This document shows positions 3,994 to 61,368 of a stretch of DNA of 64,000 bases, piece by piece (position 1 is the stretch's first letter; every line of letters begins with the position of its first letter). Source of the DNA: Candidatus Poribacteria bacterium (GTDB lineage Bacteria > Poribacteria > WGA-4E > JAJDTR01); contig CBDCTK010000002.1 in NCBI GenBank assembly GCA_965222225.1, positions 3,840,001 through 3,904,000 on the forward strand. The letters are read 5' to 3'. A program made the translations under genes and the position numbers. Below the pieces are notes generated by a model. That model saw only the letters and a list, made by a program, of their open reading frames with translations. It was not told the DNA's origin and did not search any database.

Positions 3994-4177
3994 GAACCTG
4001 TTTGGAAAGTACATTTGCAGGGCGCGCACTGCGATCAACTGACTGGATAAGAAAGGCGATAGCTAATCCCGTGCGATAGAAGTCCCGATAGGTGTATAGC
4101 AGGCGACCACAAAAGCATGAAAAAGCCGCGCCCAAAGTGACTGAAATTGCTTTGCCACCTATTATTCAAACAGGCTC
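3994..4177. mobile_element. MITE, GAGCCTGTTTGAA-TIR family, carrying the hairpin element at 4033-4091
   Basis: Ends GAACCTGTTTGGA / TTCAAACAGGCTC, flanked by TTA on both sides. Confidence 0.8.
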
Positions 4178-4224
4178 TTAAGGTTTTTGCTAGTCACTAA
4201 ACACTTTCTCCAATTCTTAATGCA

Positions 4225-4683
4225 CTACCTCAATTCGTCGATGCCCAAAACCCAGTTGTTCCATTTGCGATCCGGGAAACCGCCTAGGGATCGGTAGAAT
4301 TCCTCGGCAGCGATGTTCCCGGTCATGACAGTCCAAATCAGTTCAGCCGCACCAATGGACTTGGCATGCGAAATCACTGCCGCCATCAAGGCCTTTCCCG
4401 CTCCCATATGTCGTGCTGCCTCAACAACAAACAGTTCTTTGAGCACGAGCTTTGGTCGAAGGGTGTAGGTCCAAAGAATCGGATATGTGACAGCCATCCC
4501 GACGAGATCATCGTCTTGTTCAGCAACAAATGCGGTGAATAAACGCGCATCGCCAAAACCATGCCGAAGGATGCTCTCCCGTGTCACGGCAAACTCGTTG
4601 ATATAGTCCTCAAACCTCGCAAGCTCCTGCATGAGTTCGAGCAAACGATCAGCGTCTTGCTGATTAGCCAATCTAACGCGCAT
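4225..4683 (-). CDS. GNAT family N-acetyltransferase (diamine acetyltransferase-like)
   Basis: ELARFE, LKELFV..ARHMGAGKALM acetyl-CoA motif, N..A..FYRSLG. Confidence 0.88.
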   Translation of the reverse strand: MRVRLANQQDADRLLELMQELARFEDYINEFAVTRESILRHGFGDARLFTAFVAEQDDDLVGMAVTYPILWTYTLRPKLVLKELFVVEAARHMGAGKALMAAVISHAKSIGAAELIWTVMTGNIAAEEFYRSLGGFPDRKWNNWVLGIDELR

Positions 4684-4905
4684 TTAGTGGTACCGGTCCT
4701 TGAGGAAATCGTTGAGGTAGCCCAACCCTCCATGCGACATCCACGGAATGGGCGATTTGGCAAGTGCCGGAGCCGCGTATTCCAACACAGAGCGCATATT
4801 GATGTCTTCACGACCTTCGGCAGCAATAAAGTAAATCTTCAGACTGATGCCGTCGAAGTGGGCCAGGCCGTGCGATTTGTATTGTCTTTTCTTGTATTGC
4901 CCCAT
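4684..4905 (-). CDS. Short hypothetical protein, probably a truncated gene abutting the GNAT gene
   Basis: 73-aa ORF with GGAG RBS; stop is adjacent to the GNAT start. Confidence 0.4.
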   Translation of the reverse strand: MGQYKKRQYKSHGLAHFDGISLKIYFIAAEGREDINMRSVLEYAAPALAKSPIPWMSHGGLGYLNDFLKDRYH

Positions 4906-5206
4906 ACGTCGGTTTCTCCCAATTACTATCTAATTCGGATTTTACGATAGGCGTCTGACCAGCCCACATCTTATAATCCCGATTCAAAGAGACGAATTCA
5001 AACCGAGACGATACCACCCCTTATGTTGACTACTTGGGTAATCCGCTGTATCCTGTGTCATAAGGACAGACCTTTATTGCTGCTCGGTCTTGTTCACCGA
5101 ACGATGATTGTGTGCGCCACGGCTTTGTGTCAGGGCGTTCTCGTTTGTAGCGGATTAAAATAATCCATTGCACTACGGACTGTCAAGGTTCAGGAAAAAA
5201 AGATAC

Positions 5207-5416
5207 TATAGTCATTGCAACTAAGAATTACACATGTGTTTATTAACATACCCAAATTCCCACCCATTCCCGTAGGTCGGGATCAACCGAACGAATAGTG
5301 AGGGCGATAGAGATCCCTTCCAGCCCGACCCGCTCAATGGGAAACGTCGCAAACCGGGAGATTGTGAGCTAAGTCGAGTCAATCAATGCTCATATGTGTA
5401 AATATAAATGACTATA
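5207..5416. mobile_element. Putative second MITE with TATAGTCATT..TTACACAT imperfect inverted ends; contains a REP filled with the hairpin element
   Basis: Left TATAGTCATTGCAACTAAGAATTACACAT, right ATGTGTAAATATAAATGACTATA. Confidence 0.55.
5272..5330 (+). repeat. REP with inserted GATCAA/GCGATAG hairpin element (5281-5317)
   Basis: GTAGGTCGG GATCAA CC GA AC GAATA GT GA GG GCGATAG AGATCC CTTCCAGCCCGACC. Confidence 0.85.
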
Positions 5417-5654
5417 ACTGCGTAATAATTCGATAAGAAGGACTTGCCGGCAACGTCAACGGTTCCCTCTTCGAGCTTGGGCGCCTCCTCGGTTTGAGGC
5501 ACCGCGCTGCCAGCGGAACGGCGTTTACCCGCGCCTTATCCTCGCGTACCTGTGTGTTGGCGTCATAGAACAACAAGGACAGTTGAGCGAGCGTCATCGG
5601 TCATGCCAATACAACGATGAAGAATAGGCTCAATGTTAACCTTGTGTGTGTCAT
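5417..5654 (-). pseudogene. Truncated, degraded duplicate of the 5' end of the LamG-like gene at 2836-3705
   Basis: MTHTRLTLSLFFIVVLA* then ..FYDANTQ; similarity extends through the upstream region (5655-5762 vs 3706-3812). Confidence 0.8.
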
Positions 5655-5822
5655 GGTAACACTCTTTTTATCTTTTCAATTATTTCGTGTTGTGGGTTGG
5701 AATTAGCAGTAAGAGAAAAGAGGGGATTGGAGGTTTGACGTTCAAACATCCTCTGCTAGTGGTTATTGCTTTGAAGTACGGAACAACAGTCGCGGAAGCT
5801 CCTACAGAGAAATGGTGGGGCG

Positions 5823-5914
5823 GGGACCTCTATCGCAAGGGATTTGCTATGGGATCTCTATCGCATTCGCTAATCGCTCATTTGATCCTATCCGGTCGCT
5901 TGATCCCAGTCTAC
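5823..5914 (-). repeat. Nested hairpin-element cluster within a REP
   Basis: Minus strand GTAGACTGG GATCAAGCGACCGGATAG [GATCAA AT GA GC GATTA GC GA AT GCGATAG AGATCCC] ATAGCAAATCCC TTGCGATAGAGGTCCC. Confidence 0.8.
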
Positions 5915-5944
5915 AGACTGTCATTGTATCACAATCTGCGACTG

Positions 5945-6934
5945 TTATAGTAGTCCGGCGGCGCGGAGCACCGTCTCCTGCACGGTAAATTCGTGGTCTA
6001 GCGAGCGGTCGGGAGACTTCTCGCCGCGGATGTCCGCCACAAGCGCCTTGAGATCGCCGATATGAGACGGTCGTTTCTCAATCTCTACCCGCTGCCAACC
6101 TTCGGCATAGCCATCCCGATCTTCATCAAGACACAGCCGAAGCGCCGGCGGATCTACCGGTTCGAGTATCGCGCTGCCGCGCGTCCCGTAAACCTCCAAT
6201 CGCCTTGATTCACCCGACGATACCTCTGCCGCTGCGGACTCGATGGTCGCCATTGCGTCCGGATATTCAAAGACGGCGGCGGTGTTATCTTGTGCCCAGG
6301 GGAAGGTACTGTCCAGGTTCTGCGAGAAAGATGTCACGCGCTCGGGTCGCCCCAGCAGCGCGACGATAATGTCGATAAGATGGGGGGCGAGAATGAACAT
6401 GATACCGCCCTCGCGTTCGCCGCGGGAATCCCACCGCGCCCACAGGGATTCATCGGAGCGGCGCGTCGAGATGCGTCCGCGAACGGAGAATAGCTTTCCC
6501 AGTCTCCCGGAACTTGCCCAATCAAGGACGAACTGGAATCCTGCGTTATAGCGGAACATATAGCCGAGTTGGACACACAGCCCCTTCTCGCGTGCAATGT
6601 CCAATATCGACCGGAACGCCTCCAAATCGTCGCCTGCCGGCTTGTCGAGCCAGACGTGCTTTCCATGTTCAACCGCTGCCCGCGCAAACTCGAGGTTTTC
6701 GGACACCCGTCCCTGCGCCGCGACTCCCACAATGCTCTCGTCGTCCAGTATCTCCGCCGCGGACGACAACCAGTGAACGCCCTCAAACGCGTCGTTGGTG
6801 CCGAGTGTTTCGCGAGATTGCGCGGACGGTTCATAAATGCCTACGAAGTCGACATCCTCGCTTGTCTTCAGCGTCCGCGCCTTGCTGGGGGCGTGGTCAT
6901 GCGAAATGCCGAATTGTGCAAACCTGAGTCTCAT
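5945..6934 (-). CDS. Gfo/Idh/MocA family oxidoreductase (paralog 1)
   Basis: GKHVWLDKP, LGYMFRY, GG..F....HLID motifs. Confidence 0.9.
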   Translation of the reverse strand: MRLRFAQFGISHDHAPSKARTLKTSEDVDFVGIYEPSAQSRETLGTNDAFEGVHWLSSAAEILDDESIVGVAAQGRVSENLEFARAAVEHGKHVWLDKPAGDDLEAFRSILDIAREKGLCVQLGYMFRYNAGFQFVLDWASSGRLGKLFSVRGRISTRRSDESLWARWDSRGEREGGIMFILAPHLIDIIVALLGRPERVTSFSQNLDSTFPWAQDNTAAVFEYPDAMATIESAAAEVSSGESRRLEVYGTRGSAILEPVDPPALRLCLDEDRDGYAEGWQRVEIEKRPSHIGDLKALVADIRGEKSPDRSLDHEFTVQETVLRAAGLL

Positions 6935-7101
6935 TCTGCCTTGCCTCCATAAAATTTGAGTTTAGTGACGGACAGTGGCTTAATTTTAAAAGATAATAGA
7001 ACTTGCACAGTAACAGGAGGTCGCTCCTACAAGTATTGTAGCGTCGAAACAGCGAATAAGCTGCCCTACGGCAATCTCTTAGGTGTTCAATCACGCAAGT
7101 C

Positions 7102-7930
7102 CTATAGCAGCCCGACTGCGCGGAGCACCGTCTCCTGCACGGTAAATTCGTGGTCTAGCGAACGATCGGGGGACTTCTCGCCGCGGATATCCGCCACAAG
7201 CGCCCGGAGACTCTCGACATAACGCGGTCGATCCTCTACTTCCACCCGCTGCCACCCTACGGCATAACCATCCCGATCTTCGTCAAGGCACAGCCGCAGC
7301 GCCGGCGGTTCCAGCGGTTCGATTATCACGCTGCCGCGGGTTCCGTAGACCTCAAAGCGTCTCGATTCTTTCGTCGACACTTCCGACGCGGTAGACTCGA
7401 TGGTCACCAAGGCGTCAGCGTATTCGAAGACAGATGTGGTGTTGTCACGGTACCAAGGGACGACATGGTCCAAGTTCTGCGAGAAGAATTCCGCGCGTTC
7501 GGGCCGTCCCAGTATGGCGACGACAATGTCGATAAGGTGACACGCGAGGATGAACATAATGCCGCCCTCGCGCTCGCCGCGCGAATCCTTCAGTTTCCAT
7601 GATGCGGGATCCGAGCGGCTCGACGAGATGCGTCCGCGAATTGAAAATATATCGCCCAGTTTCCCGGAATTCGCCCAATCAATGAGGAATTGGAATCCCG
7701 CGTTGTAACGGAACATGTAACCGAGCTGGACGCACAGCCCTTTCTCGCGTGCAATGTCCAGAACCGCGCGGAACGCCTCCAGATCATCGCCCGCCGGTTT
7801 GTCAAGCCAGACGTGCTTTCCGCGCTCAAGCGCCGCCCGCGAAATCGACATCGTCGTTTGATTTCATCGCGATCGCCTTGCCGGTGGCGTGGCCGTGCGA
7901 GATGCCGTACTGTGCAAACCTCAATTTCAT
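7102..7930 (-). pseudogene. Gfo/Idh/MocA oxidoreductase paralog 2, frameshifted by a 161-bp deletion
   Basis: ATG 7930 gives MKLRFAQYGISHGHA..DVDFAG, then joins out of frame to RAALERGKHVW; 829 nt vs 990 nt in the neighbours. Confidence 0.85.
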
Positions 7931-8009
7931 TCAGGGTTGCCTCCATAAGATTTGAGTTTAGTCACGGAGATGGCTCAATGCTAAAAGATAATGGAACTCA
8001 CGCAGCAAT

Positions 8010-8204
8010 GTAGGTTGGGTTGAACGAATAAACACCAATCTCTATCTACGCCAAGAGGATGGCAGTCCTTAAATGGACACCCCATATGTGTAACGATAGA
8101 GTGAAACCCAACTCAATCTAACTACAACCAAATGTTGGGTTTCACTCCCAGAATCCAAATGTAATACTTGATATGTTTCATTTGCGTTGTTCAACCCAAC
8201 CTAC
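8010..8204. repeat. REPIN-like inverted doublet of GTAGGTTGGGTTGAAC REPs
   Basis: GTAGGTTGGGTTGAAC..GTGAAACCCAAC..GTTGGGTTTCAC..GTTCAACCCAACCTAC. Confidence 0.75.
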
Positions 8205-8221
8205 GTCCAACTTGTGGTGGT

Positions 8222-9211
8222 TCATAGCAGCCCAACTGCGCGGAGCACCGTTTCCTGTACGGTAAATTCGTGGTCTAGCGAGCGGTCGGGCGATTTTTCG
8301 CCGCGGATGTCCGCCACAAGCGCCCGGAGGCTGTCGATATAGCGCGGTTGATGCTTCACGTCCACTCGCTGCCAACCTTCGGCATAACCGTCCCGATTTT
8401 CGTCAAGACACAGTCGCAGCGCCGGCGGTTCGAGCGGTTCGAGTATCACGCTGCCGCGGGTTCCGTAGACCTCCAAGCGTCTTGATGCACTCGACGACAC
8501 TTCCGATGCGGTCGACTCGAGCGTAACCATTGCGTCCGGATATTCGAGGACGGACGTGGTGTTATCACGAAACCAAGGGAAGGTATGGTCCAAGTTCTGC
8601 GAGAAAAATGTCGCGCGTTCGGGGCGCCCGAGTATGGCGACGATGATATCGAGAAGGTGACATGCGAGAATGAACATAATGCCGCCTTCGCGTTCGCCGC
8701 GGGAATCCCATCGTGTCCACGAGGCCTCGTCCGAACGGCGCGTCGAGATGCGTCCGCGAATTGAGAATATATCGCCCAGTTTCCCGGAATTTGCCCAATC
8801 GAGGAGGAACTGAAATCCCGCGTTATATCGGAACATATAGCCGAGTTGGACACACAGCCCCTTTTCGCGTGCGATGTCCAGAACCGCGCGGAACGCCTCC
8901 AGGTCGTCGCCTGCCGGTTTGTCGAGCCAGACGTGCTTGCCACGTTCAACCGCCGCGCGTGCGTATTCGAGGTTTTTGGACACCCGTCCCTGTACCGCGA
9001 CCCCCACAATGCTCTCATCCTCCAACATCTCCTCCGCGGACGAGAACCAGTTAACCCCCTCATACGCCTCATTGGCGCCGAGTGTAGCGCGAACTTCCGT
9101 TGACGGTTCATAAACGCCCGCGAAATCGACATCGTCGTTTGTTTTCAGTGTCTTCGCCTTTCCGCTGGCGTGGTCGTGCGAGATGCCGTATTGTGCAAAC
9201 CTGATTTTCAT
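8222..9211 (-). CDS. Gfo/Idh/MocA family oxidoreductase (paralog 3)
   Basis: Same motifs and 329-aa length as paralog 1. Confidence 0.9.
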   Translation of the reverse strand: MKIRFAQYGISHDHASGKAKTLKTNDDVDFAGVYEPSTEVRATLGANEAYEGVNWFSSAEEMLEDESIVGVAVQGRVSKNLEYARAAVERGKHVWLDKPAGDDLEAFRAVLDIAREKGLCVQLGYMFRYNAGFQFLLDWANSGKLGDIFSIRGRISTRRSDEASWTRWDSRGEREGGIMFILACHLLDIIVAILGRPERATFFSQNLDHTFPWFRDNTTSVLEYPDAMVTLESTASEVSSSASRRLEVYGTRGSVILEPLEPPALRLCLDENRDGYAEGWQRVDVKHQPRYIDSLRALVADIRGEKSPDRSLDHEFTVQETVLRAVGLL

Positions 9212-9378
9212 TCTGCCTCACCTCCATCTAAATTGAATTTAGTAACGGATGAATCCTTGAACCGTGTTAATTCTTGCCGAATGTCCGTCGTACTGTCAAG
9301 CAAATTCAGCGGAAGCGACAGAACAATCGTACCGAAGGGGGGAGATTCGGGATCTGACGATTGTTCATTCCAAAAGAA

Positions 9379-9495
9379 ATCGCGACCGGGAGAGGATCTC
9401 TATCGATAAAAGGAACGGACAGTGACTACGATAGTATCCTACTCACTACGGGATTTACTATCGCCTTCACTATTCGTTCAGTTGATCGCTCCTAC
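9379..9495 (-). repeat. Hairpin-element cluster within a REP
   Basis: Minus strand GTAGGAGC GATCAA CT GA AC GAATA GT GA AG GCGATAG TAAATCCC plus further partial units. Confidence 0.8.
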
Positions 9496-9575
9496 GGTTG
9501 GTAGCGATTGTTGTTGACCGAGAAGCGAAAGCGGGGTAAAATTCTCCCGCATTTGTCATATGGAATCACCTCTAA

Positions 9576-9786
9576 GAGCCTGTTTGAATAATCGGTGGCA
9601 AAGCCATTTTTAGTTATTTGTCGGAAGTTTTTTCATGTTTTCATTGTTGGCTGCTACATACCTGTCGCCCTGCTGGGGCTTAGGTGCACGGGGTTTTTGG
9701 TGTTTCTATACACCTTCCGCCCCTCTGGGGCTTTAGATGCTAGTGCGCAGTGCGCACCCTACAAACTGTACTTTTCAAACAGGCTC
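9576..9786. mobile_element. MITE, GAGCCTGTTTGAA-TIR family (copy without hairpin element)
   Basis: Perfect 13-bp TIR, TAA target duplication, internal REP-like hairpins. Confidence 0.88.
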
Positions 9787-9850
9787 TAAGAGTGATGGAG
9801 AGCATTGACTTTAACCAAATCGAATGATGCCGCATCCGAAGGGTTTGAAG

Positions 9851-11227
9851 ATGGCGGAAGAAACACGTTACCTTGTCCTGGATTCGCGAATCATCGCCGA
9901 CGTTGAGGGGGCAAAACTCACGCTTGGTGAAGTGGCAAAACACCCTGCGAACCCGCTCTTCACCGAGGAGAAACCGTGGGAACCCCGCTACGACAACGTC
10001 TACGCCGATGTCATTTATGACGACGACGAAAAAACCTATAAGTGTTGGTACAACCCGTTTATCGTTGACGCGCGGGTGACCAGCACGCCTCCGGAACGGC
10101 GCCATCCCGACATCATAAAGTACAACGATGTGAAACCGACGGATCGAGAGATAGGGCTATGCTATGCGGTCTCAAAGGACGGAATCCATTGGGAAAAACC
10201 GAATCTGGGCATGGCTGAGTTCGAGGGGGACAAAAGGAACAACATCGTCACGCGCCGCCGCGGCGTCGCAGGCATTTACAAGGATGGCCGCGATCCCGAT
10301 CCGACGAGACGCTACAAGATGTTTTTCTCCGCGAGCAGGGGTACGTTCGTGGCGTTCTCTCCGGACGGCTTGCATTGGGGCGAGCAAATTCCCGTACCGG
10401 GGCACGAGGGCGGTAATCGGCCAAGCGCGTTCTGGTCACCGCATCTCGGCAAGTATGTCGTAATCACCCGACGCAATTCGGATCTCGGCAGGCGCCAAGT
10501 CACGCAGACCGAGTCGTCCGACTTTGTGACCTGGAGGCGGGAGAGGAGCATTCTGGAGGGACCGACTCAGCAACTGCAAACCCACGACATGATTGTCTTT
10601 CCGACGTGCGGCTTGTACATCGGATTGGTAGGGGTGATGGTGTTTCCGGAGGAGGATTCCGATCGTGGAGTGAAGCAGCACGCCGAACTGGCGTGGAGCC
10701 CTGACACCGTCACCTGGCACCGGATACAGGAGGGCACTCCGTTTATCGGACACAGCCCCGCCGAGAAAGAACGGTACGGGGAAACACCTTACGACTGGGG
10801 CACCATCTTCGCCGCCGCGCCGATCTTCCATGACGATGAGGTCCGAATCTATTACGGTGCGGGCGACTGGCACTTCTTCGAATGGCGGAACGGCTACCTC
10901 GCGCTGGCGACGCTCAGACCCGATGGCTGGGCGGGATACGAGCCAATCGCTGCTAAAAGCACGGCGGTGGTTACGACGGAACTAGTGGATTTCGACGGGG
11001 AGACGCTTGGGGTAACCGCCGACGTGGACGATGGCGGCTCGGTTCACGTTGAGGTAGTTAATGAGGAGAACGAGTGCTTGGCGGCGATCCAACCTATTGT
11101 TGATACCGTCACTGACGGTCAAGTGGCGTGGGAGGCAGATGAATCCTTTGTCAGCCTGAACAGTAAGCGTGCGCGTCTGAGATTTCGGCTGCGCAACGCC
11201 AAACTGTACGGCTTCCAGACATGGTAG
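9851..11227 (+). CDS. Five-bladed beta-propeller glycoside hydrolase-like protein (GH32/43/130-like)
   Basis: KHPANP, YKCWY, YAVSKDGIHWEKP, SPDGLHW, SSDFVTW repeats; LATLRPDGW linker to a C-terminal beta domain. Confidence 0.7.
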   Translation: MAEETRYLVLDSRIIADVEGAKLTLGEVAKHPANPLFTEEKPWEPRYDNVYADVIYDDDEKTYKCWYNPFIVDARVTSTPPERRHPDIIKYNDVKPTDREIGLCYAVSKDGIHWEKPNLGMAEFEGDKRNNIVTRRRGVAGIYKDGRDPDPTRRYKMFFSASRGTFVAFSPDGLHWGEQIPVPGHEGGNRPSAFWSPHLGKYVVITRRNSDLGRRQVTQTESSDFVTWRRERSILEGPTQQLQTHDMIVFPTCGLYIGLVGVMVFPEEDSDRGVKQHAELAWSPDTVTWHRIQEGTPFIGHSPAEKERYGETPYDWGTIFAAAPIFHDDEVRIYYGAGDWHFFEWRNGYLALATLRPDGWAGYEPIAAKSTAVVTTELVDFDGETLGVTADVDDGGSVHVEVVNEENECLAAIQPIVDTVTDGQVAWEADESFVSLNSKRARLRFRLRNAKLYGFQTW

Positions 11228-11233
11228 CCATAT

Positions 11234-11288
11234 GTAGGGTGGGATCAAGGGAGCGAATAGCGACCGCGATAGAGTTCCACTGCCCACC
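11234..11288 (+). repeat. REP with inserted hairpin element
   Basis: GTAGGGTGG GATCAA GG GA GC GAATA GC GA CC GCGATAG AGTTC CACTGCCCACC. Confidence 0.85.
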
Positions 11289-11437
11289 AGCCTTTTTCCT
11301 TGTGCGTCTGATTGGACGTTCACCTTCAATTATTCCGCAATGTTTGTCGATTCGAATCGAAATGATTATGATGTAAACCGTATATCCGGTCTAACTAGAA
11401 TTCTTCCGATGCCCGGGACGGGCGAGAGGAACCAGAA

Positions 11438-12502
11438 ATGTCAGAAGCAATACCTTTTAATATCCCGATGATTGACCTATGCGACGAGACAGAGCGTCAT
11501 GTGATCATCGCCCAAGGCACCCCTGAAAGCTACAAAGGGCACCCCACGACGCTCCTGATGCCGGACCAAAAAACCATGTTCTGCGTCTATCCGCTGGGTC
11601 ACGGCGGACCTTCGGCGGTTCTCCAGCGGAGCGACGATGCCGGTCTAACGTGGTCGGATCCGCTGCCCGTTCCGGAGAACTGGAAGACGGCGACCAATTG
11701 CCCGGCGATCTTCCGATTTGTCGGGCCGGACGGCGTGGAACGGCTGTTTGTTTTTGAGGGTTTGAAAAAGATGCGTCAGTCGGTGTCGCTCAACCGCGGC
11801 GAGACGTGGACGCCGTTCGAGGAGAACGGACTGAAAACGGAAATGCCCTTCACCACGATTATCGAAGTCTCCGGGAACCGATTGATGGGCGGATGGAGCC
11901 GGCAGGGACCGACGCTCATCAGCTTCTCCGACGATGGCGGCTTGACGTGGTCGCCCGAACGGGTGCTGGTTGAGAGCGGCGGGAAGTTCCCCGATTCAAA
12001 GCCGTGCGAGCCGGCGTTTGTGCGCTCGCCCGACGGGAAGGAAATCGCGTGTGTGTTGCGGGTCAGCAGCAGTATGAAATGCCGCTCTCTCGCAGTGTTC
12101 AGCGAGGACGAAGGGGAATCGTGGACGGATCCGGTGGAGCTTGACCGCACGATGACGGGGGACCGCCACCAACCGCGCTACTCGTCGGACGGACGTCTCC
12201 TCATCCCCTTCCGCGATAGGACGCTGCACAGCCCAACCTGGGGCCACTTCGTGGCGTGGGTGGGAACGTACGACGATATTCGCAACTGTCGAGCCGGGCA
12301 GTATCGCCTCAAACTGCTGCACAGCTACGACGAGGTGAAAAAGCATGACACCGGCTACCCTGGTGTGGAACTTCTGCCGGACGACACGCTTGTCGTGACG
12401 ACGTATGTCAAGTATAGACCCGGTCCTGAGAAGCAGTCCGTGGTCAGTGTACGGCTAAAGCTGGAGGAGATTGACGCTAAGGCGAAGAGCATGCGCGGTT
12501 AA
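11438..12502 (+). CDS. BNR/Asp-box exo-alpha-sialidase-like protein (copy 1)
   Basis: Asp-boxes SDDAGLTW, SLNRGETW, SDDGGLTW, SEDEGESW; C-terminal GYP. Confidence 0.82.
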   Translation: MSEAIPFNIPMIDLCDETERHVIIAQGTPESYKGHPTTLLMPDQKTMFCVYPLGHGGPSAVLQRSDDAGLTWSDPLPVPENWKTATNCPAIFRFVGPDGVERLFVFEGLKKMRQSVSLNRGETWTPFEENGLKTEMPFTTIIEVSGNRLMGGWSRQGPTLISFSDDGGLTWSPERVLVESGGKFPDSKPCEPAFVRSPDGKEIACVLRVSSSMKCRSLAVFSEDEGESWTDPVELDRTMTGDRHQPRYSSDGRLLIPFRDRTLHSPTWGHFVAWVGTYDDIRNCRAGQYRLKLLHSYDEVKKHDTGYPGVELLPDDTLVVTTYVKYRPGPEKQSVVSVRLKLEEIDAKAKSMRG

Positions 12503-12593
12503 ACCATGGGAAAGACCATAATCAACCCCCGTTTCAAAACAAAATCTTGGAATCGGTTTAGAATTGCCGCCTAACTCGTATCTCTAATTTGCT

Positions 12594-12618
12594 GTAGGAG
12601 CGATCTCCGAATCGCGAC
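12594..12618 (+). repeat. Empty REP GTAGGAGCGATCTCCGAATCGCGAC (identical copy at 14406-14430)
   Basis: GTAG plus imperfect palindrome; unfilled counterpart of 40382-40440 and 54220. Confidence 0.75.
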
Positions 12619-12643
12619 CCTCGGTTTGCGGTAACGCGGTTCT

Positions 12644-12872
12644 GTAGGTTGGGTTGAACGGTCAAACACGAATCCGTGCCAAAGCGGAGGGAGAATCTGA
12701 CTTACAACAACATCCGCCTGTGGATAGACAAAGTGAATCCCAACACCGTATTTCCCGAGTAGCGTATCTGTCGGTTTTCTCTATGCTTGGTGAGGCTATG
12801 AGCGCCATCAAGCACCGGAACGTACGCGAAGGTTTAGGGGTTTGTTGCTCGTTTCCGTTCAACCCGACCTAC
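12644..12872. repeat. REPIN-like inverted doublet of GTAGGTTGGGTTGAACG REPs
   Basis: GTAGGTTGGGTTGAACGG ... CCGTTCAACCCGACCTAC. Confidence 0.7.
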
Positions 12873-12980
12873 GAAATATCGCTGAGAAGTTATACCATCT
12901 TGCTTAAATAACAGTGCATATAGTGCTTTCCATGGTCTATTTTGACAACTGTTTCCCTTCACGCGAAACCCCGTATGCGG

Positions 12981-13070
12981 GAATCAAGCGAGTGAATAGC
13001 GAGTGATCAAGGGAGTGGCAAGCGACCGCGATAGAAATCCCATAGAAAATCCTGTGCGATAGAAGGTCCC
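12981..13070 (+). repeat. Nested hairpin-element cluster
   Basis: AATCAA GC GA GT GAATA GC GA GT [GATCAA GG GA GT GGCAA GC GA CC GCGATAG AAATCCC] ATAG AAAATCCT GTGCGATAGAAGGTCCC. Confidence 0.8.
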
Positions 13071-13247
13071 ACTGTTAGTTTGCGGATTCCAAAATCTAAC
13101 GGATTAGGCAGAATGCGCGGATGATGGAATATTGCCACGAACAACCGAATTTCATGAATCCAATCGGATAGGACCTACGCAAATCTTTCCCATTACGCAT
13201 TATGTATTTCGAGACATTCAGTTACGGAAACCCCAAAGGAGTAAAAC

Positions 13248-14312
13248 ATGTCAGAATCGATACCTTTTAACATCCCAATGATCGACCTGTGCGACGAGAC
13301 GCACCGCCACGTGATTATCGCCCAAGGCACGGCTGAAAGTTACAAGGGGCACCCTACGACGCTGCTGATGCCGGACCAAAAAACGATGTTCTGCGTCTAT
13401 CCGTTGGGGCACGGAGGACCTTCCGCGGTGCTCCAGCGCAGCGACGATGCCGGTCTGACGTGGTCGGATCCGCTGCCCGTCCCGGAGAACTGGAAGACGG
13501 CTACCAACTGCCCGGCCATATTCCGATTTGTCGGGCCGGACGGCGTGGAACGGCTGTTTGTTTTTGAGGGTTTGGGAAAGATGCGCCAATCCGTGTCTCT
13601 TGACCGCGGTGAGACGTGGACGCCGTTCGAGGAGAACGGACTGAAAACCGCAATGCCCTTCACCACCATTATCGAAATCTCCGGGAACCGCTTGATGGGT
13701 GGATGGAGCCGGAAGCCATCGACGCTTATCAGCTTCTCCGACGATGGCGGCTTGACATGGTCGCCCGAACGGGTTCTGGCTGAGAGCGGCGGGAAGTTCC
13801 CCGATTCAATGCCGTGCGAGCCGGCGTTTGTGCGCTCGCCCGACGGGAAGGAAATCGCGTGTGTGTTGCGGGTCAGCAGCAGTATGAAATGCCGCTCTCT
13901 CGCAGTGTTCAGCGAGGACGAAGGGGAAACGTGGACGGATCCGGTGGAGCTTGACCGCACGATGACGGGTGACCGCCACCAACCGCGCTACTCGTCGGAC
14001 GGACGTCTCCTCATCCCCTTCCGCGATAGGACGTTGAATAGCCCGACGTGGGGCCACTTTGTGGCATGGGTGGGAACGTATGACGATCTGCGAAATTGCC
14101 GAGCGGGGCAGTATCGTCTCAAACTGCTGCACAGCTACGACGAGGTGAAAAAGCATGACACCGGCTATCCCGGGGTGGAACTCTTGCCGGACGACACGCT
14201 TGTCGTGACGACGTACGTCAAGTACAGACCGGGACCTGAGAAACAGTCCGTGGTCAGTGTGCGGTTAAAGCTGGAGGAAATTGACGCCAAGGCGGCTAGC
14301 GGGAGGGGTTGA
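13248..14312 (+). CDS. BNR/Asp-box exo-alpha-sialidase-like protein (copy 2)
   Basis: Near-identical 354-aa paralog of 11438-12502. Confidence 0.82.
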   Translation: MSESIPFNIPMIDLCDETHRHVIIAQGTAESYKGHPTTLLMPDQKTMFCVYPLGHGGPSAVLQRSDDAGLTWSDPLPVPENWKTATNCPAIFRFVGPDGVERLFVFEGLGKMRQSVSLDRGETWTPFEENGLKTAMPFTTIIEISGNRLMGGWSRKPSTLISFSDDGGLTWSPERVLAESGGKFPDSMPCEPAFVRSPDGKEIACVLRVSSSMKCRSLAVFSEDEGETWTDPVELDRTMTGDRHQPRYSSDGRLLIPFRDRTLNSPTWGHFVAWVGTYDDLRNCRAGQYRLKLLHSYDEVKKHDTGYPGVELLPDDTLVVTTYVKYRPGPEKQSVVSVRLKLEEIDAKAASGRG

Positions 14313-14636
14313 GCCGTGGTGGAAAGATAGTAATCAACCTCCGTTTCTTAGTGAAATTGTATGGCTGGTTTAGAATTGCTGCTTAAATCGTATATCTTAT
14401 TTGCTGTAGGAGCGATCTCCGAATCGCGACCCTAGGTTTGCTGTAACGCAATTCATTCCGTATCCGATTGGTAGTTCACTTGCCTGTAGACCGCAATATG
14501 TGTAAATATTAACGTAAATGAATATAGATGCTATTGCGTTGTCCTGAGAACGTTGTGAATTGAGGTTCGGACGGTGGATGTGGTATACTTTATATTCGCC
14601 TAAACCACGGATTTTGAACAAAGGAGTGTGTAATCT

Positions 14637-15434
14637 ATGTCTATGCAACAGTTGCGCACGCTGACGGAGGAACAGGTGGCGCAATTCAAACTCAACGGTT
14701 TTCTAGCGGTTGAGAATGTTCTATCAACCGAAGAAGTGGAAACTCTCGCGGCGCATAGTGACCTTATTGCCGCCGGCAAGGCAAAGAATATCCCGGACAC
14801 TAGCATTCAAATTGAACCGGCGATTCGCAAGAACGGGAAACCTATCGAAAACCAGGTTTTATCGGTACGCAAACTATATAACTTGGCGGTGTATGATGAC
14901 GTGATGTGGAGTCATGTCACCAATCCCAAAGTTGTGGACATCATTGCCGACCTGCTGGGCACCGATGACATCAAGATGTACGGCGATCAGTTTTTCATGA
15001 AATCGCCCAAGGGAGTCGGCTCCGCGCAGCCGTGGCACCAGGATTCCGCCTCTTGGCGCGACATCTTTCCCATGGATCTGGTGAGTGCGTGGACCTCCCT
15101 AGACCATGCCACCGAGGAGAACGGGTGTTTGAACTTTCTCCCGGGGACGCATCGCTGGGGTATGGTGCGAGGCGAGCGGCTTAAGGTATTTTTGGACGAC
15201 CTCGGCGGGAAGCAGTGGCCCATCGTACTGGCGCCGCTCACCCCCGGCAGCATCAGTTTCCATCACAGTCTTACGCTGCACATGAGCAACGCCAACCTCT
15301 CGGGCAAGCGGCGGCGCGGCTACGCGATACACTATATGCGCGCGGCTTCATGGAAAGATGAATCGGTAACGGACGCGCCGAAAATGCCCCCATTCAAGTC
15401 GGTGAGGGGCAGATCGTTCCCCGGACGGGTATAA
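14637..15434 (+). CDS. PhyH family dioxygenase
   Basis: PWHQD, ENGCLNFLPGTH, HMSNANLS..RR. Confidence 0.9.
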   Translation: MSMQQLRTLTEEQVAQFKLNGFLAVENVLSTEEVETLAAHSDLIAAGKAKNIPDTSIQIEPAIRKNGKPIENQVLSVRKLYNLAVYDDVMWSHVTNPKVVDIIADLLGTDDIKMYGDQFFMKSPKGVGSAQPWHQDSASWRDIFPMDLVSAWTSLDHATEENGCLNFLPGTHRWGMVRGERLKVFLDDLGGKQWPIVLAPLTPGSISFHHSLTLHMSNANLSGKRRRGYAIHYMRAASWKDESVTDAPKMPPFKSVRGRSFPGRV

Positions 15435-15630
15435 GCCTATCTCAACCCGTAGACACGACGCGCAAAGTGATACGGGGACGCTCTTCGCAGCGATGTAAAA
15501 ACTGGCTATGAGCCGACAAAATAGTGGATAAGAAACTGAGTTTTCAAGAAAAAACTCGGTTTCTACGTGGAGTCCAGTCCGAAGTGTTTCTACGATTGCA
15601 GATTCGCAACGAAGGAGATTTATCGAGTTA

Positions 15631-16680: not shown

Positions 16681-16825
16681 GGCTGTAACAATTAATGCCT
16701 CGCCCACATCCTCATTTCCCGTGTGCGGAGCATCGTGCCTTTCCGGCATCCCCATTTCCTGTAGGCGGGGCATCTTGCCCCGCCCGTGACCTCCGTTGGA
16801 GCGCAGCATTGAGTTGAATTTAACA

Positions 16826-16895
16826 AGATCTCTATAGAGTTCCCTAATCCGTCACTTGATCCTATCCAATCGCTTGATTGTTCAACCCAACCTAC
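16826..16895 (-). repeat. Partial nested hairpin elements in a GTAGGTTGGGTTGAAC REP
   Basis: Minus strand GTAGGTTGGGTTGAAC AATCAAGCGATTGGATAG GATCAAGTGACGGATTAGGGAAC..ATAGAGATCTT. Confidence 0.7.
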
Positions 16896-16942
16896 GATGG
16901 TCGCGAGCTGGAGCTCGCTCCTACAACCCTGGAGGAATTAAC

Positions 16943-17956: not shown

Positions 17957-18076
17957 AACGCCCAGCCCAGCCATCCACACTGACATGACACGTCCCGCCC
18001 TTCGCTGTTGAACGGTTTGAATTGGCGTGAAGACATTGGGGTAGGTTACACGGGCGGTCATCTGATACAAACCTAA

Positions 18077-18286
18077 GAGCCTGTTTGAAAAGTACAGTTT
18101 GTAGGGTGCGCACTGCGCACCAGCCTCTAACAGCCCCGGAGGGGCGGAAGGTGTGTAGAAACACCGAAACCCTGCGTACCTAAGCCCCAGCGGGGCGACA
18201 GGTATATAGCGGGCAAATACACAAACATGAAAAACTGTCTTCAAATGACTAAAAATAGCTTTGCTGCCGACTATTCAAACAGGTTC
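18077..18286. mobile_element. MITE, GAGCCTGTTTGAA-TIR family (copy without hairpin element, inverted relative to 9576)
   Basis: TIRs GAGCCTGTTTGAA / TTCAAACAGGTTC, TAA duplication, interior homologous to 9576-9786. Confidence 0.88.
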
Positions 18287-18439
18287 TAAGATAGCCTTTA
18301 GTTGAACGTGCAAATTGTACTCATTTGGTCAATAATAGGGATTTTGAGATGAACACCTCCGCTCTGCACGCCAAAGCGGCTCGTGCTGATTGATAGATCT
18401 GTGCTTGAGGTATTCATCATTGATGCGGAGGCCAGTGTT

Positions 18440-18753
18440 ATGTCAGGATTGCGCAAAGAGCTGACACAGAAGCTTAATTTAATACCAGACGTTTATGTTA
18501 ATCTATGGAAAGATTCCGATTTGCTCTGTGTGTTCTATAAAGATAAAGAAGTAGCTCACTTCCAAGGTAACAATGAGCTAGATATAAGGCTAACAAGGGC
18601 TGTTATAAACGTGAAGGGCTTTCGCCCCCGAAGAACACAACTAGCCACCTAGGCAGGTCCAAAAATTCAACGTGGATAGTGCAAGGATTCAGGCGTTCTG
18701 CGCATGTGGATGAAATGGTAAGGTTAGTTAGAATAGCTATTAAACAGCTTTGA
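18440..18753 (+). pseudogene. Frameshifted small AT-rich gene, DUF5519/luciferase-like family
   Basis: MSGLRKEL..KEVAHFQGNNELDIRLT continues after a 1-nt shift near 18608 as REGLSPP..STWI..VRLVRIAIKQL*. Confidence 0.55.
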
Positions 18754-19061
18754 CTTAAGGGAGTTATAAGTTGACGGTAGGCTCATTGAGGCATTTCCTT
18801 CGTCAACCCTCGTTTTCTAGACGTTTATTATTCGGCTTGAATCCAGTGAATATCGGGTTTGAGCCGTTTTTTTGCCCATCAAACTAAGGGTTTTTGAACT
18901 TCTAACCCAACAATCCTTGTTGATTCGGGCGTACAATCCGGGTGAAATGGCTATCATCTAATGAAGATTGTTGGTTTCATCCTTAAGCGGTTTTCTGCTA
19001 TAATCTTGCGGGACGGCAGAATCCAACAACCGATCTATAATACGCACCGAGGGGACTGATT

Positions 19062-19925: not shown

Positions 19926-19982
19926 CTTGCAAATCATTGTAATAATCTACCGTTCACCGTTTCTAGGAGATTCTAAACGGAT

Positions 19983-20128
19983 TTGGGTTTCACGGGACCT
20001 CTATCACGCGGGATTTACTATCGCTTTCGCTATGGGATTTACTATCGCACTCGCTGTCCGCTCGGTTGATCGTTCGTTTGATCTCAGTCAATCCTATTTC
20101 GGTCGCTTGATTCTTCTACCCAACCTAC
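19983..20128 (-). repeat. Multiply nested hairpin elements in a GTAGGTTGGG..GTGAAACCCAA REP
   Basis: Minus strand has four GATCAA-type left halves followed by three GCGATAG..TCCC right halves. Confidence 0.8.
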
Positions 20129-20167
20129 AGCTATTTAAGTCCTATGAAATACGCTAAAGGATAGACA

Positions 20168-21346: not shown

Positions 21347-21364
21347 TTGGCAGGATAAAGCGAG

Positions 21365-22390: not shown

Positions 22391-22429
22391 GGCTTGTGTT
22401 AAGTTGGAAGGACTTACGCAATTCGGTTT

Positions 22430-22608
22430 GTAGGAGCGATCAAGGGAGCGAATAGCGACTGCGATGGAGATTCCTTTATTGCGCGTCTTCTGTAGGAGCG
22501 AGTTTCACTCGCGACAGAAAGTCGTGGCCGGAAGAGGATTTCTATCGCACGGGATTGTCTATTGCACTCCTTATCTAGTCGCTTGATCGTTCTCCACTTG
22601 TTTGATCG
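22430..22608. repeat. REP cluster with hairpin elements in both orientations
   Basis: Plus unit at 22438 (GG/CT, GC/GC); minus unit at 22551-22588 (GC/GT, CT/AG); empty REP at 22492. Confidence 0.8.
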
Positions 22609-24416: not shown

Positions 24417-24551
24417 GTAGGGTGCGCACTGCGCACCAGCCTTTGAAAGCTCCAGCGCGAGATCAAACGAGTGAATAACGAGGGATCAAGCGACTGGATA
24501 GGGAGCGTAGAAGTCCCATAGCAAATCCCGTGCGATAGAGATCTCGACAGG
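24417..24551 (+). repeat. MITE-interior-type REPs with nested hairpin elements (24461-24546)
   Basis: GTAGGGTGCGCACTGCGCACC..CTCCAGCG, two GATCAA units and three right halves, then CGACAGG. Confidence 0.75.
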
Positions 24552-26459: not shown

Positions 26460-26515
26460 GTAGGAGGGGATCAAGCGAACGGATAGTGAGTGCGATAGAG
26501 ATCCCATTGCCCCGA
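26460..26515 (+). repeat. REP with inserted hairpin element
   Basis: GTAGGAGGG GATCAA GC GA AC GGATA GT GA GT GCGATAG AGATCC CATTGCCCCGA. Confidence 0.85.
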
Positions 26516-28408: not shown

Positions 28409-28486
28409 AGGATCTCTATCAATCAACTGACCGAACAAGGAAGGCGATAGAAAATCCCACTCCCTATCCATCGTTTGATCCCCGAC
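28409..28486. repeat. Plus-strand hairpin element inserted into a minus-strand copy
   Basis: GGATCTCTATC [AATCAA CT GA CC GAACA AG GA AG GCGATAG AAAATCCC] ACTCCCTATCCATCGTTTGATC. Confidence 0.75.
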
Positions 28487-33336: not shown

Positions 33337-33448
33337 GGAATTTCTATCGTCCTCGTTGTTCATTCGGTTGATTGCTCCTTATTCATTATTCAGTCGCTTG
33401 AGGGGATTTATATCGAACTCCCTTTTCGATTACTTGATCCCGCCCTAC
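33337..33448 (-). repeat. Tandem degenerate hairpin elements in a REP
   Basis: Minus strand GTAGGGCGG GATCAA.. with three units, the last AATCAA CC GA AT GAACA AC GA GG ACGATAG AAATTCC. Confidence 0.75.
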
Positions 33449-36449: not shown

Positions 36450-36507
36450 GTAGGGGCGAGGATCAAGTGAGCGAATAGCGAATGCGATAGGGATCTTCCC
36501 CTCGCCC
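36450..36507 (+). repeat. REP with inserted hairpin element
   Basis: GTAGGGGCGAG GATCAA GT GA GC GAATA GC GA AT GCGATAG GGATCT TCCCCTCGCCC. Confidence 0.85.
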
Positions 36508-36651: not shown

Positions 36652-36785
36652 GATCAAATGAGATCAAGCGAGTGCGATAGTAGATCCCATAGTGAATGAT
36701 CAACTGAGCGAATAGCGAAGGCGATAGACAATCCTACTCGCTATCTGTTCGCTTGATCGTTATCCGCTCGTTAGATCGCACCTAC
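36652..36785. repeat. Complex hairpin-element cluster with units in both orientations
   Basis: Three plus-strand GATCAA units (complete one at 36698: CT/AG, GC/GC) and two minus-strand partial units ending in CCTAC. Confidence 0.8.
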
Positions 36786-40381: not shown

Positions 40382-40504
40382 GAAGGAGTGATCAACCGAC
40401 CAGACAGGGACGGCGATAGAAATTCCCTCCGATTCGCGACTCCGATTGCCGACAGTTAAAGATCCCTATCGCATTCCTTATTCAGTCGCTTGATCCCGAC
40501 CTAC
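40382..40504. repeat. Two convergent REPs, each filled with a hairpin element
   Basis: Plus unit at 40390 inside GAAGGAGTGATC..TCCGATTCGCGAC; minus unit 40460-40495 inside a GTAGGTCGG REP. Confidence 0.82.
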
Positions 40505-42502: not shown

Positions 42503-42620
42503 GATCAACCGACCGGATAAATCAAGCGATCGAACAGGGGGCGATCAAGGGAATGAAAAATGACCGCGATAGAGTTCGCATAGGGATCCCAGGGCGATAG
42601 AAAATCCAGATAGAGATCCC
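42503..42620 (+). repeat. Triple-nested hairpin elements inside an AGAAACCGA..CTCGGTTTC palindrome
   Basis: Three left halves then matching right halves in reverse order; empty host type at ~15531-15564. Confidence 0.82.
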
Positions 42621-54219: not shown

Positions 54220-54353
54220 GTAGGAGTGATCTCCGAATCAATCAACCGAGTGGATAGCGAGTAGGATTTTCTATCGCCTTGGGATTTCTATGAACTCCAT
54301 CACACTCGCTATTCACTCATTTGATCCCTCGTTGTCCACTCGGTCAATCCTAC
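54220..54353. repeat. Convergent REPs with hairpin-element units in both orientations
   Basis: GTAGGAGTGATCTCCGAATC AATCAACCGAGTGGATAGCGAGT ... CTCGCTATTCACTCATTTGATC ... CCTAC. Confidence 0.78.
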
Positions 54354-56066: not shown

Positions 56067-56182
56067 GTAGGATCAAGCGAACGATCAACTGAGCGGATAG
56101 CGAAGGCGATAGTAAATCCCATAGTGAGTGCGATAGAGATTCCCTCAAACGAGATCGACCGAACTGACAGTGAGTGCGACAG
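56067..56182 (+). repeat. Hairpin element nested in the loop of another, plus a third degenerate copy
   Basis: GATCAA GC GA AC [GATCAA CT GA GC GGATA GC GA AG GCGATAG TAAATCCC] ATA GT GA GT GCGATAG AGATTCC. Confidence 0.85.
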
Positions 56183-60138: not shown

Positions 60139-60297
60139 GAGCCTGTTTGAAAATACAGTTTGTAAGGTGCGATCAAGCGAATGAATAATGAGCGCGATAG
60201 AGATCCTACAGATATGTAGCAGCCAACAATGAAAACATGAAAAAACTTCCGACAAATGACTAAAAATGGCTTTGCCACCGATAATTCAAGCAGGCTC
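60139..60297. mobile_element. MITE, GAGCCTGTTTGAA-TIR family, with internal hairpins replaced by a hairpin element (60171-60206)
   Basis: TIRs, TAA duplication; 159 bp vs ~210 bp for the unfilled copies. Confidence 0.88.
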
Positions 60298-61299: not shown

Positions 61300-61368
61300 G
61301 TAGACGGGATCAACTGACTGGATAAGGAAGGCGATAGCTAATCCCGATAGAGATTTCCTTGCCCCGCC
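61300..61368 (+). repeat. REP with inserted hairpin element
   Basis: GTAGACGG GATCAA CT GA CT GGATA AG GA AG GCGATAG CTAATCCC GATAGAGATTTCC TTGCCCCGCC. Confidence 0.85.

Follow-up and report, generated by a model that had tools for sequence, protein, structure and literature searches.

A 34–37-nt hairpin element inserted in hairpin-forming repeats of a Candidatus Poribacteria genome

We have analysed a stretch of 64,000 nt from the metagenome-assembled genome of a Candidatus Poribacteria bacterium, a symbiont of sponges (contig CBDCTK010000002.1, positions 3,840,001 to 3,904,000; hereafter the window), in which a very small hairpin element beginning with GATCAA is dispersed in repetitive extragenic palindromes (REPs) with GTAG heads, in a 213-nt MITE (miniature inverted-repeat transposable element) and in other copies of itself. 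Copies were called at three mismatches or fewer over 22 constant positions together with at least three of the four stem pairs, and the reversed genome served as control. The 5.70-Mb genome contains 1024 copies, against 0 in the control, and the window contains 23 at three mismatches or fewer and 29 at four or fewer. The commonest 12-mers of the genome are pieces of this element; the GATCAA hexamer by itself is not enriched (52 matches against 48.7 expected). At 5272–5330 the window reads GTAGGTCGG|GATCAACCGAACGAATAGTGAGGGCGATAGAGATCC|CTTCCAGCCCGACC.

Anatomy of the element

The element is 34–37 nt long, and its unit can be written as (G)(A)TCAA N1N2 GA N3N4 GRATA N4'N3' GA N2'N1' GCGATAG followed by a tail. 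GRATA forms the loop of a hairpin whose stem consists of 2 + 2 bp split by a tandem G-A/A-G mismatch. The sequence logo extends from GATCAA to about 30 nt further on; its left edge is sharp, its right edge ragged. In the bacterium's own genus (g1) the tail is AGATCC(C) or NAAATCCC, and the element ends as GGGATC...GATCCC, which is a short inverted repeat. In the other genus rich in it (g4) the tail is TCTT, which was found in all 12 copies inspected from three Poribacteria chromosomes of 4.7–4.9 Mb, and also in local arrays of the present genome.

The hairpin is supported by covariation, for which we used 974 copies picked on constant positions only, with shuffled columns as control. The four stem pairs are formed in 926, 915, 938 and 944 of these copies, the corresponding shuffle means being 510, 508, 482 and 775. 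Pairs 7-23, 8-22 and 11-19 occur in three Watson-Crick types each and pair 12-18 in two, and the 974 copies comprise 380 stem haplotypes; the sequence of the stem is free and only its pairing is kept. Among columns −8 to +42, no covarying column pairs were found besides these four. The stem cells hold 425 G-T or T-G combinations against 57 of A-C or C-A, an excess that marks the GATCAA strand as the folded one. No Rfam family matched the window at gathering scores.

One tandem array of period 38 elsewhere in the genome (L182, Table 1) has the order GTAG, GATCAA, hairpin, GCGATAG and TCTT. Its units have differing, compensated stems, and the element stands directly behind GTAG with a TCTT tail as in the other genus.

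Insertion sites and targets

Filled and empty sites were compared between orthologous loci and within the genome. At the REP headed at 11234, which is filled in the window, the related genome G005 carries the intact REP GTAGGGTGGGCACTGCCCACC (that is, GTAGGGTGGG^CACTGCCCACC) between flanking genes about 90% identical to those of the window. Relative to this empty site, the window has a 34-nt insert, ATCAA...AGTTC, between G and C, with zero duplicated bases. The same orthologous site is filled by a similar copy with other tails in genomes G003 and G006, a distribution that reflects either two insertions or a precise loss in G005. The copy at 26469 is common to G005, where a further copy lies in its loop (AACGA|TCAACTG...TAAATCCC|GTAG), and the copy at 13005 is shared unchanged. 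These three loci belong to the 9.8–28.3 kb section of the window that is collinear with G005; within it, the surroundings of 16832, 20042, 22438 and 22559 are too diverged to align, and the copy at 28421 has no partner.

For the search of paralogous sites, 11 nt of left flank were joined to 11 nt of right flank and sought elsewhere in the genome. An exact empty counterpart exists for 69 of 524 strict copies. These include GTAGGAGCGATCTCCGAATCGCGAC, whose occurrences at 12594 and 14406 had been named by the original prediction, correctly, as the empty form of the filled site at 40382. In unambiguous empty sites the host retains the G or GA of GATCAA and the insert measures 34–36 nt; neither orthologous nor paralogous sites show duplicated bases, in agreement with the proposed absence of a target duplication. 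The 5' junction is G|ATCAA or GA|TCAA, often with a preceding G-run; its commonest form is ..GCG^ATCAA, and the base before G/GA is mostly G or C. Both junctions vary by 1–3 nt, and GATC is often followed by CC in place of the CG or CA expected from the host. Insertion takes place behind a G or GA of the host, has a fixed polarity and leaves the target unduplicated; the element has been active since the divergence of species within its own genus.

Two other insertion rules were considered and rejected. A GATC-flanked insertion with duplication of GATC leaves the extra bases in filled GTAGGAGCGATC REPs unexplained, and other hosts have no GATC. A fixed cut 6 nt after RTAG (GTAG+6 in REPs, ATAG+6 in nests) is at odds with the host loops at the nested site, which by eye often read ATAA, ACAA or ATAT.

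REPs are one class of host among several. GATCAA had been placed 8–11 nt into a GTAG head at ten sites, and all ten are as described (Table 1); so are the two GTAGGTTGGG REPs at 16895 and 20128, both on the minus strand, which the element enters about 16 nt in. Across the genome GTAG occurs within 20 nt upstream (at 4–20 nt, with peaks at 8–9, 16 and 4–6 nt) of 284/1024 copies, against 226 of 5120 control positions taken 120–500 nt away on the same strand. In four REP families (A–D), with 111 filled and 293 empty sites, the predicted single orientation relative to GTAG was borne out by 111 forward inserts against 1 inverse; 56 apparent cases of 'GTAGG + reverse copy' are, judged by eye, bottom-strand views of forward inserts or chance junction GTAGGs. 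The description of the element as a hyperparasite of REPs is right in so far as it is a separate insert in REP hairpins, but proved too narrow, with 740/1024 copies lacking GTAG within 20 nt upstream.

The element also enters its own copies. At one peeling level, 206/1024 copies lie inside another one, 182 in the same and 24 in the opposite orientation. The nested hot spots are after position 24 (..NNG^CGATAG; 67 copies), position 21 (GA^; 24 copies), the hairpin loop at position 14 (GA^ATAG; 18 copies) and, with 22 copies, positions 18/19. Solo tails, for example the one at 61338, are frequent and would be explained by deletions between direct repeats of such nests.

The main host in family A (REP_A), GTAGGGTGCGCACTGCGCACC, is part of the 213-nt MITE with long inverted ends, from which it follows that this REP family was at least partly spread by a MITE with terminal inverted repeats (TIRs). 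Besides this REP, the MITE contains two CCCC..GGGG hairpin units, and about 37 full and 70–150 partial copies were counted in the genome. In the 37 full MITEs the element is inserted at GCG^CAC, CTGCG^CACC, CCCCGGAG^GGG and CCCCAGCGGGG^CG, and all scorable inserts are forward.

Outside the window, an array of clustered regularly interspaced short palindromic repeats (CRISPR) adjoins cas1 (235 bits) and cas4. Its 37-nt repeat is GTAGCAACCATTGCC[CG]CGA[CT]GAAAAG[GC]GGACTGAAAG and its spacers measure 35–39 nt. The element interrupts several of these repeats in both orientations, following GAAAAG^G on the top strand and ..TCGGGG^ on the bottom one, and may inactivate parts of the array. A 240-nt composite of the element, a degenerate CRISPR repeat and an inverted element occurs 4 times. 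Furthermore, two IS3-type insertion sequence (IS) copies (orfB with HTH_21, rve and rve_3) have the element in orfA at identical positions, immediately ahead of the A-rich frameshift site; the insertion adds a stop codon there, and one of the two ISs has a further nested element.

A more general preference is visible in 290 isolated copies, whose rejoined flanks fold at −11.9 kcal/mol against −10.3 kcal/mol for local controls (P 2e-8); in 204 of the 290 the junction lies within the predicted stem. What all targets fit is not a rule of insertion 'in REPs' but one by which the element follows G or GA and enters at or within a stem, in a fixed polarity. Subfamilies of the element are tied to particular hosts: AG..CT copies to GTAGGGTGCG^ (31/54), GG..CT copies to ..GTGG^ (18/34) and CT..AG copies to loops (10/20).

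Most copies (888/1021) are localised in crudely defined intergenic DNA, and the orientation of the 1021 copies relative to neighbouring genes has no consistent bias. The folded strand is the locally C-rich one in 694/1021 copies and in 268/385 clusters (3 kb), and isolated copies without GTAG have the same bias (114/180). Empty REPs show the strand bias of the element as well, which means that the bias may be inherited from the hosts. Local clusters of copies are often uniform in orientation. The GC skew follows the gene-strand excess (r 0.47) and changes sign many times along the contig, so that replichores cannot be drawn.

Table 1 Element copies and related features in the window, followed by loci elsewhere (given as genome:contig:positions; G000, the present genome)
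Feature	Position	Strand	Context
Element copy	4033..4062	+	Second site of REP_A-like hairpin (..GCGCACTGCG^)
Element copy, 0 mismatches	5281..5317	+	In REP GTAGGTCGGG^CTTCCAGCCCGACC, head 5272, GATCAA 9 nt on; paralogous site exactly empty; G retained by host; tail AGATCC
Element copy	5851..5887	-	Nested after GGATAG of host copy with REP head GTAGACTGG at 5914 (-), GATCAA 9 nt on
Diverged copy, 3 mismatches	9405..9434	+	Opposite orientation, after ..CTATCG^ of the 9458-9487 copy
Element copy	9451..9487	-	In GTAGGAGC REP, head 9495 (-), GATCAA 8 nt on; carries diverged opposite-strand copy 9405-9434 downstream of core
Element copy	11243..11277	+	In REP GTAGGGTGGG^CACTGCCCACC, head 11234, GATCAA 9 nt on; ortholog empty in G005, filled in G003 and G006
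Empty REP GTAGGAGCGATCTCCGAATCGCGAC	12594..12618	+	Second one starts at 14406
Element copy	13005..13034	+	Nested after ..GAGTG^ (position 24) of host copy; same nest in G005
Diverged copy	16832..16861	-	Nested in host copy 16 nt into REP GTAGGTTGGGTTGAAC (-)
MITE, 213 nt	18073..18291		Inverted ends GAGCCTGTTTGAAAAG.../...TTCAAACAGGTTC, CTAAG on both sides; no partner in G005; contigs from four public runs pass over it, joining 18072 to 18286
Element copy	20042..20071	-	In loop (..GAACGA^) of host copy near GTAGGTTGGG-type REP (-)
Element copy	22438..22474	+	In GTAGGAGC-type REP, head 22430, GATCAA 8 nt on
Element copy	22559..22588	-	Nested after ..AACGA^ (position 21) of host copy
Two overlapping degenerate copies, 4 mismatches each	24461..24513	+	Form a nest
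Element copy	26469..26505	+	In REP GTAGGAGGGG...CCCCG, head 26460, GATCAA 9 nt on; G005 ortholog with second copy nested in loop
Element copy	28421..28450	+	Opposite orientation, after ..CTATC of another copy
Degenerate copy, 4 mismatches	33410..33439	-	Behind GTAGGGCGG, head 33448 (-), GATCAA 9 nt on; second copy at 33344-33373 (-)
Element copy	36461..36496	+	In REP GTAGGGGCGAGG^TCCCCTCGCCC, head 36450, GATCAA 11 nt on
Two copies, one inside the other	36698..36758		Opposite orientation: 36698-36727 +, 36729-36758 -
Element copy	40390..40425	+	In decayed GTAGGAGCGATC-type REP (GAAGGAGTGATC, head 40382); empty paralogues 12594, 14406
Element copy	40459..40495	-	In REP GTAGGTCGG, head 40504 (-), GATCAA 9 nt on
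Element copy	42543..42572	+	Within multi-level nest
Element copy	54297..54326	-	Nested after ..GAGGG^ of host copy
CT..AG-type copy	56083..56112	+	In loop (GAACGA^ATAG) of host copy directly behind GTAG (GTAGGATCAAGCGAAC)
Element copy	60171..60200	+	Site 1 of REP_A hairpin (GTAAGGTGCG^) inside copy of 213-nt MITE
Element copy	61308..61344	+	Behind GTAGACGG, head 61300, GATCAA 8 nt on; then extra solo tail CGATAGAGATTTCC
PF01797 locus	G000:C2:3080255-3080728		Intact IS200-like gene (NF033573)
PF01797 locus	G000:C2:3088937-3089269 (L003)		RAYT NF047646, 92.6 bits on C-terminal part; in-frame TAG; flanked by inverted GTAGGAGCGATCTCC REPs (GTAGGAGCGATCTCCAGGTCGCGA)
PF01797 locus			RAYT-like gene flanked by GTAGGCAYAC.. 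REPs
PF01797 locus	G000:C2:2563965-2564705; G005:C1:3780663-3781403		247-aa RAYT-like gene without flanking repeats
PF01797 locus			Fragment
AbiA-family gene	G000:C2:4500547-4501089 (L180)		TIGR04499, 290.7 bits
CRISPR array	G000:C2:2705500-2707800 (L181:7500-9800)		Adjoins cas1 and cas4
Two IS3-type copies	G000:C2:4078700-4080100; C2:2516900-2517700		Element at same place in orfA
Tandem array, period 38	G000:C2:1578372-1578600 (L182)		TCTT tails

Candidate enzymes and mode of movement

The profile PF01797, used here for Y1 transposases (HUH tyrosine transposases), has five matches in the genome, among them genes for IS200-like proteins and REP-associated tyrosine transposases (RAYTs; Table 1). 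IS200-like loci of six genomes of the genus (L001, L029, L034, L036, L037 and L040) have on both sides small hairpin units in inverted arrays, either AAAGCCCCNGNGGGGCGACAGG or CGCTCCAGAGGAGCG plus ATGTSRATAG. The units are themselves targets of the element, and the 213-nt MITE is built in part from the first of them. This combination of IS200-like genes with inverted hairpin-unit arrays resembles the 'TIRtron' of Di Nocera 2013. Element copies close to the IS200-like gene are inserted in the CCCC..GGGG hairpin units that flank this gene. The 247-aa RAYT-like gene is 99% identical between this genome and G005, while the flanking genes of the window region are about 90% identical, which suggests a recent transfer of this gene.

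Other enzymes were sought in the same way. Profile searches of the genome gave no match for the IS110 family (PF01548) or TnpB (PF07282), and the only gene resembling a reverse transcriptase in the PF00078 search belongs to the AbiA family. Between adjacent inverted copies there are 35 candidate open reading frames, which by eye are mostly ordinary genes, plus the IS200-like gene and the two IS3-type copies.

We tentatively consider the element a non-autonomous mobile unit that moves as single-stranded DNA (ssDNA) by means of a protein reading its mismatched hairpin, most likely an HUH-Y1 enzyme acting in trans, and we put the probability of this reading at roughly 0.4. Such a protein, most likely a RAYT or an IS200-like transposase, would recognise both the mismatched hairpin of the element and the hairpin of the target, cut 3' of G or GA and insert the element there, much as IS200/IS605 elements enter 3' of theirs. 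Composite hosts, namely the MITE and nests with intact outer ends, would carry copies further. An HUH-Y1 enzyme is the best candidate because the lack of duplication, the polarity, the structure on one strand, the exact empty sites and the strand bias match, and also because genes of this kind with repeat families of their own are active in these genomes.

A number of results weigh against it, some of them concerning the element itself. IS200/IS605 elements have two end hairpins and a defined target of 4–5 nt, and with its one hairpin and mere G/GA target the present element appears unlike them. The active strand of IS608 lies on the lagging-strand template; the location of the folded strand mostly on the C-rich strand would be a bias of opposite sign. 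Junctions that vary by 1–3 nt, together with the replacement by CC, look less exact than Y1 chemistry. Nearest-neighbour DNA energies gave no support for a stable hairpin in four copies of the window (z 0.61, 0.84, −1.31 and 0.12), and for the conserved shape of two 2-bp helices with a GA/AG mismatch, recognition by a protein is more probable than stability of its own. The ties between subfamilies and targets suggest spread as passengers, and many copies have clearly multiplied in this way with the MITE and nests.

The distribution of the genes points in the same unfavourable direction. The original prediction had proposed a RAYT-like enzyme encoded elsewhere in the genome as one source of the element. 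RAYT and IS200-like genes are indeed present with repeats of their own, but in a comparison over 41 genomes, made at ortholog level for one gene only, none of the Y1 gene types follows the distribution of the element. PF01797 is present in 34/41 genomes, with or without the element, and G008, with 622 exact-pattern copies, has one PF01797 match. The IS200-like type occurs also in genera counted as element-free (g3, g6 and g9) and was not detected in 2/4 genomes of g4, and the 247-aa RAYT-like gene occurs in 2/41 genomes, plus one fragment. None of the five PF01797 loci is a Y1 gene flanked by clean element copies. The RAYT that scores best against its family contains an in-frame TAG here and is either a pseudogene or read through. 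A link of the element to RAYTs is neither shown nor refuted.

A bolder proposal, and a somewhat unlikely one, is that the element represents a new class of minimal ssDNA transposon defined by structure, for which one protein-read hairpin of about 17 nt (two 2-bp helices with the tandem G-A mismatch between them) and about 15 constant bases would suffice. Any hairpin would serve as target irrespective of sequence, hence the entry into REPs, MITEs, CRISPR repeats (with disruption of arrays) and the element itself, and the enzyme would be either a domesticated trans-acting HUH protein, on a substrate that differs from the repeats flanking its own gene, or a member of an undescribed family.

The element could also be mobile as described by means of an enzyme other than Y1, i.e., an undescribed or housekeeping recombinase, or a nuclease plus ligase, that reads the GA-mismatched hairpin in the two element-rich genera. 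We regard this as unlikely but as a serious rival, with several observations on its side: Y1 genes do not co-occur with the element, a single hairpin stands in place of two ends, the target is G/GA only, and the range is patchy (g1 and g4, plus 13 copies in genome G133). Against this, no candidate emerged from the profiles searched (PF01797, PF00078, PF01548 and PF07282 only; other HUH enzymes and tyrosine and serine recombinases were not searched).

Template switching in replication would dispense with a dedicated enzyme. A nascent strand that has stalled at a hairpin with G, GA or a G-run at its end would anneal through microhomology to the GGGATC of another copy, copy about 35 nt as far as the GATCCC of the latter and switch back. 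The 5' junction, which always shares 1–2 nt (G or GA) with the element and is often preceded by G-runs, is consistent with this, as are the variable 3' junction with CC often replacing host CG or CA, the hairpin targets, the strand bias relative to GC skew, the lack of duplication and the fact that no enzyme tracks the element. However, some 1000 copies have identical ends, and in palindromic REPs, where the two strands are nearly identical locally, the polarity is nevertheless 111 to 1. Moreover, the other genus has a TCTT tail and a 5' flank that is not G-rich, and restriction to two genera would need a lineage-specific factor. Copying primed by microhomology of 1–2 nt is not known to reach such copy numbers. 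On balance, this explanation seems rather improbable, though it is a serious rival.

The ties to hosts raise the further question whether the element is, or still is, mobile itself. Most of its copies might be passengers of the MITE, of REP doublets and of duplicated nests, with gene conversion mimicking filled and empty sites; the subfamilies tied to hosts, the main REP_A host carried by the MITE and the four occurrences of the 240-nt composite agree with this. So does the site at 11234, filled by a similar subfamily in three genomes and empty in the closest relative, where conversion or excision is possible. We consider the idea very unlikely in view of the 380 compensated stem haplotypes, which need selection on copying of the hairpin itself, of hosts unrelated in sequence (including those of the 290 isolated copies), of a nested gain at an orthologous site and of the insertions in CRISPR repeats and an IS gene.

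CRISPR spacer integration duplicates the repeat. Off-target integration of spacer-sized hairpin DNA by Cas1-Cas2(-Cas4) at hairpin-forming sequences is suggested by the match between the insert (34–36 nt) and the spacers of the genome's own array, and by cas1 and cas4 adjoining an array whose repeats hold many copies; it is highly improbable, since nothing is duplicated here and the roughly 1000 copies are mostly far from the array. The least probable route is spread through an RNA copy and reverse transcription, to which the one-stranded structure, the G-T(U) wobbles and the tandem GA, a motif frequent in RNA, might point, but for which the genome offers only an AbiA defence-family gene, no gene-orientation bias and no Rfam match in the window.

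Range and relation to known small repeats

Counted as exact-pattern matches, the element occurs in 17/151 genomes of a phylum-wide sample. All nine genomes of its own genus g1 contain it (280–761 matches per genome), as do all four of genus g4, which belongs to another family (111–126 per genome). There are 2 matches in the single genome of g2, 1 in that of g12, and 1 and 13 in two of 20 genomes of g6; 0/101 genomes of family f2 and 0/14 of the other families f4–f9 have any. Among the genomes sampled, the element is abundant in only two genera, g1 and g4. The element-holding records among the matches listed (at least 125 stretches) are all Candidatus Poribacteria, and viral contigs gave 0 matches. 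A cyanobacterial origin with a link to HIP1 was considered and rejected on account of these records and of the mere 117 HIP1 sites in the genome. The 13 exact-pattern copies in G133, of the otherwise nearly element-free genus g6, lie on one strand in 12 cases and may represent a recent arrival or a contaminating contig.

The closest precedent appears to be the small dispersed repeats (SDRs) of cyanobacteria. SDR1-8 of Nostocaceae were reportedly described by Elhai et al. in 2008 (Genome Res 18:1484) as very small non-coding dispersed repeats, some with a structure kept by compensatory changes and some nested. The present element, going by this definition, is likewise very small, dispersed, often nested and structured with compensatory changes. 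SDRs, which are treated further in PMC4390886, PMC5861425 and PMC13756078, measure 21–27 nt and SDR5 21 nt. SDR5 is placed precisely in a short motif, between nt 3 and 4 of GCG^ATCGC (PMC4390886), which the commonest junction of the element resembles, and SDRs are given as reported only in heterocyst-forming cyanobacteria (PMC5861425). The element is set apart from SDR1-8 by its length of 34–37 nt and by its taxon; it also differs in targeting hairpins of many sequences, including REPs and CRISPR repeats, in a genome that is not rich in HIP1 (117 sites). The accessible text of papers citing Elhai 2008 (PMC5861425, PMC4390886, PMC13756078, PMC3116915, PMC3733652 and PMC2703918) mentions no similar element outside cyanobacteria, and full-text searches on repeats and transposable elements in Poribacteria found no description of the element.

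With REPs and their doublets (REPINs), the element shares a mostly extragenic location, a size of 20–40 nt, a short imperfect palindrome, hundreds of copies and the strand bias, and RAYTs with cognate REPs exist in the genome. In contrast to REPs, it starts with GATCAA and has no GTAG head: GTAG abuts it (distance 4) in 25/1024 copies, and the GTAGs 8–16 nt upstream belong to the host REP. It also has no cognate flanked Y1 gene (REPtron) and sits inside REPs, not beside them. REPs inside other palindromes, as well as RAYT-like genes flanked by other repeats, are on record in Di Nocera 2013.

IS200/IS605 elements and their miniature derivatives, palindrome-associated transposable elements (PATEs), are similar in having no target duplication, one orientation relative to the target, a hairpin read on a single strand, empty sites that are exact and a strand bias relative to GC skew; the differences are the element's single hairpin, its G/GA target, its ends varying by 1–3 nt and a bias of opposite sign to that of IS608. 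Certain ISs reportedly target REPs (IS1397 and ISKpn1 of the IS3 family, and IS1111/IS110-family members; Tobes and Pareja 2006, cited in PMC3116915). These also use REP hairpins as insertion targets in fixed orientation, but are of kilobase size with their own transposase, and no IS110-family gene was found in this genome. Like MITEs with TIRs, the element is small, non-coding and abundant and, in its own genus, has GGGATC...GATCCC ends. Unlike them, it makes no target duplication, and the inverted-repeat ends are missing in the other genus with its TCTT tail. The real MITE of this genome, at 18073–18291, has long TIRs and CTAAG on both sides and is unlike the element.

How REPs, SDRs and other very small repeats multiply is a decades-old question, for which the element offers an unusually clean system: about 1000 covarying copies, exact filled and empty sites, a polarity rule and a range of two genera against 101 empty genomes of the sister family. 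The narrow range makes a search for the enzyme tractable by comparison. The element is among the smallest mobile elements seen, and if its enzyme recognises hairpins generically, it would be a possible tool for inserting single-stranded DNA. A smaller parasite can use hairpin-forming repeats of its host, among them CRISPR repeats, as substrates, which matters for the reading of CRISPR arrays and for assembly.

The element fragments assemblies of these symbionts. Over window positions 4001–24000, short-read contigs of four public runs end at element borders, for example at 5235, 5357, 11243, 12983 and 22473, and the one clean joint among them passes over the 213-nt MITE.

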